From: Candidatus Woesearchaeota archaeon
Lineage (GTDB): Archaea; Nanobdellota; Nanobdellia; Woesearchaeales; GW2011-AR9
Direction of reading: 5' to 3'
Assembly (NCBI GenBank): GCA_018696595.1
Contig: JABHQW010000001.1
Location: 1 to 64,000 of the forward strand
Length of the DNA: 64,000 bases
The number at the start of each line of letters is the position of its first letter. Position 1 is the first letter of the stretch. Below, one piece after another: positions 11,688 through 14,851 of the stretch. Made by a program: the position numbers and the translations under genes. Under the pieces are notes generated by a model. It was not told the origin of the DNA and ran no database searches. It worked only from the letters and a program-made list of their open reading frames with translations.

Positions 11688-12455
11688 ATGTTACAATTCA
11701 CATTCCCAGAATATAAAAAAAATGAAAAGATTATTATTGAAGCAGGACACATTTACACTAACCAAGAAGTAAATCCGAAGCATGAATTAGGGGCAAAAGT
11801 TGGTGCTTTATTAGGAAATTTTCTCATGGGTTTAGGTTACGAAACAGAAAACTGGCTCTTTGTTGATGATTATAATCCTCAATTTGAAGAATGGCCACAA
11901 GAATTAGATTTAAATGAATATCAAAAAAAACTTACGGGATGGGGATTCTCTCCAGATCTAACAAAATTTGAAAAAGATTTAGTGGGACTGGCCCAAGAAA
12001 AGCTGGAAGAATTACTAAAAACAGGGGTTGCTGGTGAAAAGAAGAAAGGAGGAAGAATTGTTATTTATGGCAGTTCGGCACAACTTTATGACCCCAATGA
12101 GAACAAATATTCTTGTGCCCTACTAGATGCCTGTTTGTATCTGCAAAAGTTAGAGCAAGGAGACTTTACTTTAACCATCTTACCTTGTTTTGACCAATAT
12201 GGTAATTTGTACTATTCTCAACAGCAAAAAACTTTCCAGATCCTTTCCCATTTGGATGTTGATCCAACAAAGATATTACCAATTTACTTTTTTAGTCCAG
12301 GGGAAGAACCATCACAGAAAAAGAAAGTTAAATTATCCTCTAAAGAAGGACACTTGGCAGACTTAGTAACAATGCTAAAAACAATTGGAAAAGTTACGTC
12401 AGAAACCCCATTAGAAACTGGTTTAGATTTAGGAGTGATGCAATATGTCACTTAA
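11688..12455 (+). CDS. Stand-alone class I aaRS (ArgRS-like) catalytic-domain paralog
   Basis: EAGHIY (HIGH-like), LFVDDYNPQ vs ArgRS HLGDWGTQ, KLSSKEG vs ArgRS KMSTRKG; manual comparison only. Confidence 0.45.
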   Translation: MLQFTFPEYKKNEKIIIEAGHIYTNQEVNPKHELGAKVGALLGNFLMGLGYETENWLFVDDYNPQFEEWPQELDLNEYQKKLTGWGFSPDLTKFEKDLVGLAQEKLEELLKTGVAGEKKKGGRIVIYGSSAQLYDPNENKYSCALLDACLYLQKLEQGDFTLTILPCFDQYGNLYYSQQQKTFQILSHLDVDPTKILPIYFFSPGEEPSQKKKVKLSSKEGHLADLVTMLKTIGKVTSETPLETGLDLGVMQYVT

Positions 12456-13134
12456 GAAAATAGGCATATTGGGAGGAATGGGCCCGGAAGCATCAGCTCA
12501 GTTTTACCAAAAAATGATTACTATTTCACAAAAGAAATATAATGCAGTACAAGACACAGATTATCCGCCGATGGTTATTTATTCATTACCTTTAGTAGGA
12601 TTTAATGAATCTGGGATTGTTGATCAAGAATTGGTATTAAAACAATTACATCAGGGAATTAAACTATTAAATAATTCTGGCTGCGACTTCATTATTATGG
12701 TTTGTAATACCATTCACACTTTCATTGATGAATTGCAAGGAAGATCTAAAGCGCCCATTTTAAGTATTGTTGAGGGAGTAGTAAAGAAAGTAAAAGAGAA
12801 TAAAATAAAATCAGTTGGATTATTAGCATCAGAAACAACTTTTTCTTCAATGATTTATGATTCAATTTTAAACAAAAACAAGATCCATTATAGTCTACCA
12901 GATAGTAAAGGGAAAAAAGAGATCACAAAATTAATTTTCAAGATAATGGGTGGGGAAGAATTAATGAAGAGTAAAAATAAAGTAATAGAGATAGCTAAAG
13001 AGATGAAATGCCAGGCTGTAATCTTAGGGTGTACTGAACTGCCTTTAGCGATTAACCAAAATGATTTGAAGATGAAAGTATATGATTCAATGGAAATCTT
13101 AGCAGAATCTGCTCTAGAATATAGTCATGGTTAA
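12445..13134 (+). CDS. Aspartate/glutamate racemase
   Basis: GILGGMGPEAS and both catalytic Cys motifs (VCNT, LGCTEL). Confidence 0.9.
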   Translation: MSLKKIGILGGMGPEASAQFYQKMITISQKKYNAVQDTDYPPMVIYSLPLVGFNESGIVDQELVLKQLHQGIKLLNNSGCDFIIMVCNTIHTFIDELQGRSKAPILSIVEGVVKKVKENKIKSVGLLASETTFSSMIYDSILNKNKIHYSLPDSKGKKEITKLIFKIMGGEELMKSKNKVIEIAKEMKCQAVILGCTELPLAINQNDLKMKVYDSMEILAESALEYSHG

Positions 13135-14851
13135 GAAAACTTTAATAAACTCTTTAGATTTATCGGTTAATATGGACTTCAAAGCAGAAATAATCAAACT
13201 TTTAACGAAAGAAACTAAGCTAAAAGATGCAGATTTAAACAATCTAATTTCTATCCCACCAGATCCAAAACTGGGAGATTATGCCTTCCCTTGTTTCAAG
13301 TTAGGAAGCAATCCAAAAAATGCTGCTGAAACGTTGAAAAAGAAATTAAAGTTGCCAAAATTCTTATCAGGAGTACAAGTTGTTGGGCCTTATTTGAATT
13401 TCTATGTTAAAAGTGAAGTGATCACAAAGGAAGTTTTAACCAAGGTTTTTAAAGAGAAAAAAGATTATGGAAAACAGGAATTAGGAGAAGGAAAGAAAAT
13501 AGTAATAGACTTTTCTGCCCCAAATATTGCTAAACCATTTGGCATTGGCCATTTAAGAAGCACAGTGATTGGACATTCGTTATACAAAGTTTACAACACC
13601 CTAGGATACAAATCTATTGGAATAAATCATTTAGGAGATTGGGGCACACAATTTGGAAAACTAATTGTTGCTTATAAAAAATGGGGTAAAGAAAAAGAGT
13701 TAGGAAAAGATCCAATTAAATATTTATTAAAATTGTATGTTCAGTTTCATGAAGAAGCAGAAAAAGATGATAAATTAGATGACCAAGCCCGAGAAGCATT
13801 TAAAAAACTTGAAGATGGAAATAAAGAATATTTACAGTTATGGGAACATTTTAGAGAATTAAGTTTGAAAGAATTCCAAAGAATTTATCAAATCTTAGAT
13901 GTTAAGTTTGACTCTTATCATGGAGAAGCATTCTACAATAATATATTAGATAAAACAATCAAAGAATTACAACAGAAAATTAAAACAAAAATGTCTGACG
14001 GGGCATTAATTGTAGACTTAGAAGAATTTAATATGTCTCCGGTGATGTTAAAGAAATCCAATGGGGCAACAACGTACCATACAAGAGATATTGCTGCAGC
14101 CAATTACAGATTAAAAAAATATAATCCTAATCGGTTTCTTTATGTTGTAGGATCAGAACAAAAATTACATTTCAGACAACTGTTTAAAGTTTTAGAGTTA
14201 GCCGGTGAAGATAAAGAAAAATTCACCCACGCAGATTTTGGCCTATTCAGATTCCCTGAAGGGAAAATGTCCACTAGAAAAGGAAAAGTTATTTTCTTAG
14301 AAGATGTTTTGGATAAAGCAATTAAATTAGCTAGTGAAATAATTGAAAAGAAAAATCCAGATTTAAAAAATAAGAAAAAAGTTGCAATTCAAGTTGGTGT
14401 AGGAGCAATTATCTTTGCAGACTTAAGTAATGACAGAACAAGAAACATTGATTTTGATTGGGACAGAATGTTAAGTTTTGATGGAGAAACAGGACCATAC
14501 CTCCAATACACCCATGCAAGAGCAAGTTCAATCTTAAGAAAAGCCAATAGTAAAGTGTCATCAAAGATAAACTTCTCACTATTGAGTTTAGATGAAGAAA
14601 AAGCAGTAATCAGATTACTTTATGATTTCCCAGAAAGAATTGTTAAAGCTGCTGAAACATATAAACCGCATCACATTGCGAATCATTTGATTTCTCTAGC
14701 ACAAGCATTTAACGAGTTCTACCACAAATGCCCAGTTATTAGCGAGAGAGACGAACAGATGAACGCTCGTTTGTTATTAGTAGATTCTGTTAGACAAGTT
14801 CTTGAGAACGGATTAAGATTGTTAGGAATTAAAGCCCCGGATGAGATGTAA
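13127..14851 (+). CDS. argS: Arginyl-tRNA synthetase
   Basis: FSAPNIAKPFGIGHLRS, GDWGTQFG, KMSTRKG, GETGPYLQY; alternative start ATG 13172. Confidence 0.97.
   Translation: MVKKTLINSLDLSVNMDFKAEIIKLLTKETKLKDADLNNLISIPPDPKLGDYAFPCFKLGSNPKNAAETLKKKLKLPKFLSGVQVVGPYLNFYVKSEVITKEVLTKVFKEKKDYGKQELGEGKKIVIDFSAPNIAKPFGIGHLRSTVIGHSLYKVYNTLGYKSIGINHLGDWGTQFGKLIVAYKKWGKEKELGKDPIKYLLKLYVQFHEEAEKDDKLDDQAREAFKKLEDGNKEYLQLWEHFRELSLKEFQRIYQILDVKFDSYHGEAFYNNILDKTIKELQQKIKTKMSDGALIVDLEEFNMSPVMLKKSNGATTYHTRDIAAANYRLKKYNPNRFLYVVGSEQKLHFRQLFKVLELAGEDKEKFTHADFGLFRFPEGKMSTRKGKVIFLEDVLDKAIKLASEIIEKKNPDLKNKKKVAIQVGVGAIIFADLSNDRTRNIDFDWDRMLSFDGETGPYLQYTHARASSILRKANSKVSSKINFSLLSLDEEKAVIRLLYDFPERIVKAAETYKPHHIANHLISLAQAFNEFYHKCPVISERDEQMNARLLLVDSVRQVLENGLRLLGIKAPDEM

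Follow-up and report, generated by a model that had tools for sequence, protein, structure and literature searches.

Cyclodipeptide synthases (CDPS) and their fungal counterparts (RCDPS) are stand-alone class I synthetase-like domains that lack ATP motifs. RCDPS act on Arg-tRNA with the help of an essential cysteine (PMC11610942). The catalytic domain of arginyl-tRNA synthetase (ArgRS; E. coli 4oby, yeast 1bs2, human 4q2t) is a Rossmann fold with a second insertion. A mutational study of the E. coli enzyme covered residues D118, D317, R324, Y313, N123, Q341 and H132; D118 and D317 are each essential for arginine binding, and Y313 touches the guanidinium group (PMC3956977). Here we describe a 255-amino-acid (aa) protein, mini-ArgRS, that has the Rossmann fold and second insertion of ArgRS but lacks its N-terminal, first-insertion and anticodon domains and has lost the ATP motifs HIGH and KMSKS. 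Its gene lies ahead of a racemase gene and argS in a 64,000-nucleotide (nt) stretch of DNA (the window), which is contig C4 of a Candidatus Woesearchaeota genome (G000; 1.19 Mb, 97% complete) whose relatives mostly carry the label Woesearchaeota or Nanoarchaeota. We conclude that mini-ArgRS represents a real and undescribed family, a synthetase paralog without an ATP site. We also think it quite likely that the operon serves an arginine auxotroph in times of arginine shortage, through salvage and quality control that keep tRNA-Arg charged with L-arginine.

The 255-aa open reading frame (ORF) is real and, on its predicted structure, has the ArgRS catalytic fold. The AF2 model (pLDDT 89.4, pTM 0.88) retrieved ArgRS in all of its top 15 Foldseek matches (best E 2.5e-9). 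The six top rows of a VIA search were also ArgRS (Z 18.0 and root mean square deviation 2.8 Å over 215 residues against 4q2t), followed by GluQ (Z 14.6) and MshC (Z 14.1), and Atlas structure searches agree on ArgRS as the best match. Profile comparison gave the same answer: HHalign matched the family profile to that of ArgRS with 95% probability (E 3.7e-8), and the family profile picks up true ArgRS genes at about E 1e-7. Single-sequence searches with mini-ArgRS found nothing significant against the neighbouring ArgRS (BLASTP, E 1.7) or in Pfam, NCBIfam and PDB sequences, and there was no match in phage and plasmid collections. An earlier note on this DNA, made from the letters alone, had proposed a stand-alone class I synthetase-like domain without the N-terminal and anticodon (DALR) domains; the Rossmann ArgRS-type fold, the length of 255 aa and the lack of a Pfam match all bear this out.

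The window protein has 36 close homologs; clustered at 50%, the family counts 451 representatives, from DPANN archaea and from bacteria. Its distribution is patchy: of 401 genomes sampled from the phylum, 7 gave strong matches over the full length. Like the earlier note, which had called the system undescribed, we found no account of the family in the open-access literature. Mini-ArgRS does not belong to ArgRS, given the missing ATP motifs and extra domains, nor does it appear to be a member of the MshC/GluQ-type paralogs, CDPS, RCDPS or the SCO2522 family (NF040566, function unknown). Among library families SCO2522 comes closest to the wider family: 13 of 135 members match it at E<=0.1 (lowest E 1.4e-3), with scores far below its 200-bit cut-off, and the window protein itself has no match. 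These weak matches suggest that the two may be parts of one superfamily. No paper on SCO2522 was found in the open-access literature. A homodimer prediction for mini-ArgRS scored 0.01 and gives no verdict. We looked for longer, fused versions and detected none, although this is weak evidence. The domain does occur embedded, with catalytic residues intact, in giant TPR/HEAT proteins (P0072, residues 1768-1986 of 3681; P0097, residues 3189-3391 of 4742). Three tandem distant homologs share one 1.9-kb contig (L034:1-1678, G035:C91), further distant single homologs occur in G018 and G079, and one copy (L099:512-1400) is split after about 117 codons, by a frameshift or as a pseudogene, with no racemase behind it.

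The active site appears to have kept the means to bind arginine and lost the means to use ATP. Residues were mapped through the window ArgRS to E. coli ArgRS numbering, with conservation counted over 135 family members. The guanidinium clamps are kept: E18, D147 and K154, equivalent to D118, D317 and R324, are conserved in 99, 98 and 90% of members, respectively. D61 aligns with the Asp of GDWG, and equivalents of D161 and of the conserved Glu of the GES motif are also retained. In contrast to ArgRS, the carboxylate and main-chain binders N123 and Q341 are replaced by Y23 and Y175, and the gate tyrosine Y313 has become C143 in all 135 members, accompanied by a new near-invariant His, H21 (A121 in E. 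coli ArgRS), and D60. The near-invariant set is E18, H21, Y23, D60, E95, C143, D147, K154 and Q179. The HIGH position corresponds to residues 29-32, where the invariant Gly is lost, mostly to Glu; the second His (H132 in E. coli, another main-chain binder) is retained in 54% of the family, and HxGH is absent from all 74 locus copies. About 80% of the wider family lack the KMSKS region. In the window protein KLSSKEG occupies that position and is almost private to it; K[ML]S[KTS] is matched in only 3 of 35 close homologs. The acceptor-side insertion is net basic in 77% of members and the helix after Y175 in 84%. Presumably E95 and Y175 have roles at the tRNA 3' end, which we do not count as shown.

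This alignment changes how several motifs pair with those of ArgRS. The earlier note had paired FVDDY with HLGDW and YSCALLD with YHTRD, and both pairings stand. EAGHIY, which it had taken for HIGH, is a different element, because it aligns to DFSAPN and HIGH maps further along. Its QQQK pairing is out of register by one turn, since it is Y175 that pairs with the Q of EQ, and its pairing of KLSSKEG with KMSTRKG is right in position for a motif that the family does not conserve. With HIGH degenerate and KLSSKEG not shared by the family, ATP-dependent activation is unlikely, and the loss of both motifs leaves the proposal that the protein activates or ligates a D-amino acid with ATP unsupported. 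From these residues we infer that mini-ArgRS binds an arginine-type ligand and carries out cysteine-based catalysis without adenylation.

We surveyed 60 mini-ArgRS loci with less than 90% identity, in 54 of which the next gene could be assessed (it was cut off in 6); the loci are not independent, and most racemase cases are from Woesearchaeales. The next gene encodes a racemase in 33 loci, a ThrC-like pyridoxal phosphate (PLP) enzyme in 16, a fold-III decarboxylase in 1 and something else in 4, so that a racemase or PLP enzyme is the partner in 49 of 54. The linkage proposed for the window is thus found in other genomes. Both catalytic cysteines of the window racemase are intact, as had been noted, and are common to the aspartate racemase of Pyrococcus horikoshii. 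Alignment to 1jfl shows that the window protein lacks Arg48 and Lys164 of that enzyme, which we take to be its beta-carboxylate binders. The Asp-specific site instead carries a conserved acidic motif, GFDExG, found in most of 37 linked racemases. Because the Asp-specific residues are absent and an acidic motif takes their place, the substrates are probably basic amino acids; D-Asp or D-Glu, the product suggested previously, is not supported. Bacillus subtilis RacX, a racemase of Arg, Lys and Orn (PMC8142540), is of the same two-cysteine family and a precedent, at family level, for racemization of such substrates. The linked PLP enzymes score below all ThrC cut-offs and retain neither the ThrC phosphate motif nor T88; SSGN is present in all 15 examined. 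We take SSGN to be a feature of serine racemase, in which Ser-82 is the base, although cysteine synthases have that Ser too. These PLP enzymes are probable racemases.

Regulatory elements of three kinds tie the operon to arginine, as follows, and sustain the earlier suggestion of amino-acid regulation. A gene for a winged helix-turn-helix (wHTH)-ACT regulator is divergent from mini-ArgRS in 32 of 60 family loci. Orthologs of this regulator occur in 68 of 401 genomes; where the locus has no mini-ArgRS, argG, argH or argF is divergent from the regulator gene in 10 of 25 cases, and an ArgB-NAT-like gene in one. The mini-ArgRS and argG promoters have a common layout: regulator TATA box, then the palindrome, a second site 30 bp further along and the target TATA box. 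In most orthologs the regulator starts about 41 nt from site 1, which may therefore be partly autoregulatory. A sigma-70 promoter scan gave chance-level results with a model that is not applicable to archaea. Two proteins of more than 450 aa (L162:2275-3630 and L166:1-1363; 49% mutual identity, no Pfam match) occupy the regulator-controlled slot of argG and mini-ArgRS and are a candidate new arginine gene. Another gene divergent from the ACT regulator (L181:1-385) has a start that we take to resemble the arginine synthetase ArcE; the fragment has no Pfam match.

The second element is an Arg-codon leader peptide. Leaders of at least 200 nt contain an ORF of about 20 codons with tandem Arg codons near its end and a stop 43-59 nt before the gene. 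Such tandem-Arg ORFs occur in 9 of 13 long leaders (two of them near-identical), compared with a simulated mean of 0.03 and maximum of 1, and no other amino-acid doublet in long leaders exceeds 2. Among copies with short leaders, only 1 of 12 has an Arg-codon ORF. Similar leaders precede two argG operons. In two loci, the gene of a conserved protein of about 100 aa separates an Arg-codon leader from argG (L175:914-1228 and L178:2308-2604). Folding of the archaeal leader RNA is no better than that of shuffles, and a hairpin attenuator was rejected because there is no stable RNA fold. As a guess at the mechanism, a ribosome might cover the U-rich tract after the leader stop. In Salmonella, the speF leader peptide orf34 likewise has tandem Arg codons that raise expression at low arginine (PMC6386406). 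That system is bacterial, whereas the window leader is archaeal and without stable RNA structure; orf34 serves as precedent for the sign of the response, induction at arginine shortage.

Bacterial copies have the third element, a T-box-like leader, with a T-box motif and terminator directly upstream of the gene. The Rfam T-box model (RF00230; gathering score 93) matched below threshold, at 24-47 bits (E 2.7e-7 to 0.16), directly ahead of the gene at 5 of 6 bacterial loci that had been chosen for the motif. By eye, Arg codons stand at the likely specifier position. At another locus (L185), an RR leader is accompanied by a terminator. Because T-boxes respond to uncharged tRNA and argGH are needed at low arginine, we infer that the operon is induced by arginine shortage.

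The use of Arg-tRNA, another option of the earlier note, may still apply, but a role in salvage or proofreading would fit such induction better than a pathway that consumes arginine to make a product, since all three kinds of element indicate induction by shortage. We postulate the following sequence of events. When arginine is scarce, the ACT regulator would act through the operator that is also present at argGH promoters (the sign of this step is our supposition), and a ribosome stalled at the leader Arg codons would let expression run into the operon; T-box leaders would do this in the bacterial copies. The racemase, or elsewhere the PLP enzyme, would then turn scavenged D-Arg or another basic D-amino acid into the L form. 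In the least certain step, an arginyl group would enter the ancestral pocket of mini-ArgRS, with E18, D147 and K154 holding the guanidinium and D61 the alpha-amine, and Cys143 with His21 and Asp60 would attack an arginyl ester or amide without ATP. The likeliest target would be tRNA-Arg charged with D-Arg or an analog, which would be hydrolysed; release of arginine from an amide is the alternative. ArgRS would then recharge the tRNA. We favour D-to-L salvage with tRNA-Arg clean-up because the guanidinium and amine binders are kept and the carboxylate binders lost, and because of the basic acceptor-side patches and the linkage to argS and tRNA-Arg. The specific assignment, that mini-ArgRS is an ATP-independent cysteine hydrolase of arginyl esters such as D-Arg-tRNA, is tentative, with a chance that we put somewhat short of even.

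The arginine genes of the host and of neighbouring loci bear on this model. G000 has no ArgG, OTC (ornithine transcarbamylase) or M20 match. Arginine therefore cannot be made there from ornithine or citrulline by the usual route, and the operon must either yield L-Arg directly or protect tRNA-Arg. The absence of argG from 7 of 7 carriers is itself uninformative, since it is also absent from 19 of 20 non-carriers. An arginine deiminase pathway in G000 was ruled out, as there is no OTC match. argS lies within 3 kb of mini-ArgRS at 13 of the 60 loci, which belong to several distant clades, and shares its strand at 11 of them; among close archaeal racemase loci it is directly adjacent only in this window. 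In L184 (7725-7998), a T-box-like leader is followed by tRNA-Arg(TCT), and mini-ArgRS starts 3 nt later; an ArgRS fused to a B3/4 domain lies nearby (10892-13528). Locus L107 has five tRNA-Arg genes. Other neighbours are argG/argH, ArgE-like M20, OTC, ArgC-like, ArgB-like kinase, Arg decarboxylase, YqcI/YcgG and VanX; VanX-type D,D-dipeptidases adjoin three racemases.

Several observations count against salvage with tRNA-Arg clean-up. The mini-ArgRS core is net acidic (mean -4.6), and homology places C143 and H21 in the side-chain pocket. The ArgE-like, ArgC, OTC and argGH neighbours suit arginine synthesis better than editing. Close racemase orthologs exist without mini-ArgRS. Of 7 genomes that carry mini-ArgRS, 4 also have the archaeal D-aminoacyl-tRNA deacylase DTD2 (PF04414), and because of this co-occurrence the idea that mini-ArgRS replaces DTD2 is unsupported. 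ArgRS is not known to charge D-Arg well.

The position of C143 and H21 favours a different chemistry, in which Cys and His on an ArgRS scaffold would act on the guanidino group itself, convergent with arginine deiminase and amidinotransferases. The two carboxylates would clamp the guanidinium while Cys143 attacks its carbon, and passing the amidino group of a scavenged donor to ornithine would give L-Arg, replacing argF-argG-argH. Mini-ArgRS does hold the same promoter slot as argGH, and an ArgE-like M20 gene lies directly upstream of it in 4 loci, with ArgC, OTC, ArgB-like kinase and Arg decarboxylase genes near others. This proposal would, however, require that both ornithine and donor be imported in G000; argG/argH are also present in L024, L101 and L113; and it leaves unexplained the usual racemase partner as well as the lost carboxylate binders, unless the substrate is agmatine-like. 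We regard it as the main rival, somewhat less likely than the hydrolase. We give about even odds to the broader statement that mini-ArgRS is an ATP-free cysteine enzyme, acting either in tRNA-Arg proofreading for D-Arg or an analog or in making arginine by amidino transfer, and that its archaeal Arg-codon leader is an attenuator, the counterpart of the T-box.

Other precedents come from enzymes that spend charged tRNA. An Arg-tRNA-dependent transferase or cyclodipeptide synthase could link Arg with whichever D- or non-standard amino acid the partner enzyme makes, giving a small product, and the size, lost ATP motifs and kept aminoacyl pocket do resemble CDPS, with the argS and tRNA-Arg linkage in agreement. 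SbzA transfers Ile from tRNA (PMC6331615), and fungal RCDPS need acidic residues and two Tyr besides their Cys (PMC11610942). Mini-ArgRS differs from these enzymes in being ArgRS-derived and under starvation-type regulation, and a time when Arg-tRNA is scarce is the wrong time to spend it. The RCDPS motif DDXXE is found in 0 of 135 members, none of which has a Pfam CDPS match, and the neighbours include no conserved exporter or tailoring genes. The catalytic Ser of CDPS stands at the end of strand 1; positions 20-23 of mini-ArgRS read G/A-H-I-Y, with no such Ser. No CDPS is among the Foldseek and VIA matches listed, which is not an exclusion. We consider this explanation improbable. The invariant C143, H21, D60 and E95 could also form a metal site, for which CysRS is a precedent, making the protein a zinc metalloenzyme, or it could be a non-catalytic arginine sensor. 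The kept guanidinium clamps put the Cys and His next to an arginine-type ligand and the gene has a constant operon slot ahead of a metabolic enzyme, so the chance of either is slim. Slimmest is that of the ATP-dependent paralog of the earlier note, which would adenylate and ligate a D-amino acid as a MshC- or GluQ-like enzyme. The class I fold, with GluQ and MshC as the next structural matches, the second His of HIGH where retained and the KMSKS look-alike of the window protein alone agree with it; the loss of the HIGH Gly, of HxGH and of the KMSKS region do not.

Table 1. Features of the mini-ArgRS locus (window coordinates).
Feature	Position	Strand	Remarks
wHTH-ACT regulator gene	10807..11430	-	ACT_7 match; divergent from operon
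Regulator TATA box	11454..11461	-	24-31 nt ahead of regulator ATG; conserved block
Palindromic operator site 1	11473..11488	.	consensus TGTTCTA-NN-TAGAACA; Gibbs motif information content (IC) 19.3 vs 9.9 shuffled
Degenerate operator site 2	11503..11518	.	30 bp after site 1, adjoins B recognition element (BRE)/TATA; same spacing in relatives
TATA-like element, putative operon promoter	11523..11530	+	aligned with argG promoters
Leader peptide ORF	11555..11632	+	start 11555 or 11570; tandem Arg codons AGG AGA at 11621-11626, then U-rich tract
Shine-Dalgarno GGAGGT of mini-ArgRS gene	11674..11679	+	read from sequence
mini-ArgRS gene	11688..12455	+	255 aa; ArgRS catalytic-fold enzyme
Cofactor-independent racemase gene	12445..13134	+	229 aa; PF01177 and TIGR00035 matches; C87, C196
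Putative BRE-TATA promoter, leaderless argS transcript	13133..13148	+	purine run plus TTTAATAA 24-31 nt ahead of ATG 13172
Housekeeping argS	13172..14851	+	longest frame from 13127; TIGR00456 530 bits
Lrp/AsnC gene	14928..15914		downstream of argS

The gene positions and the divergent ACT gene are as the earlier note had given them, as are the two overlaps, 11 nt between the mini-ArgRS and racemase ORFs and 8 nt between the racemase ORF and the longest argS frame (13127-14851). Translational coupling to argS through the second overlap is not supported: ArgRS homology begins near ATG 13172, and argS has its own BRE/TATA-like element, a putative promoter. The 8-nt overlap probably has no functional role. 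The window ArgRS is the only copy in G000 (one TIGR00456 match), with all Arg- and ATP-binding motifs intact. The Lrp/AsnC gene does follow argS, but it is not a conserved neighbour, which rules it out as a member of the unit. A 36% paralog of this tandem Lrp/AsnC protein is encoded on contig C7 (G000:C7:15646-16329, L071), divergent from a second racemase. Elsewhere in the window, a stand-alone B3/4-domain gene (6466-7152; E 8e-7, just under the cut-off) lies close behind class I LysRS (4476-6053) and is possibly a CtdA-type editing factor, and 9488-10021 encodes a membrane protein that matches the Pycsar effector PycTM (E 1e-10). ARAGORN found only 8 tRNA genes in G000 (14 with introns) despite its completeness rating, and tRNA-Arg was detected only at a lowered threshold.

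CtdA with canavanine lyase, and the DTD deacylases, are known trans-editing and analog-removal pairs. We propose that mini-ArgRS and its partners are alike in design, with the wrong amino acid stripped from tRNA and the free form removed or recycled, although the folds are unrelated. We know of no editing factor built from the active site of ArgRS, and if our reading is right mini-ArgRS would be the first ArgRS-derived trans-editing factor. In any case an uncharacterised family joins the short list of synthetase paralogs, and its change of the gate Tyr to Cys, together with the new His and Asp, is a catalytic change absent from the known ones. With its Arg codons, the leader offers a simple candidate case of attenuation that senses an amino acid in archaea, for which we know of little evidence. 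Mini-ArgRS bears on how host-dependent DPANN archaea and small-genome bacteria obtain and protect arginine, and D-amino-acid racemases in archaea without walls would, if the proposal is true, gain a purpose in converting D- to L-amino acids.

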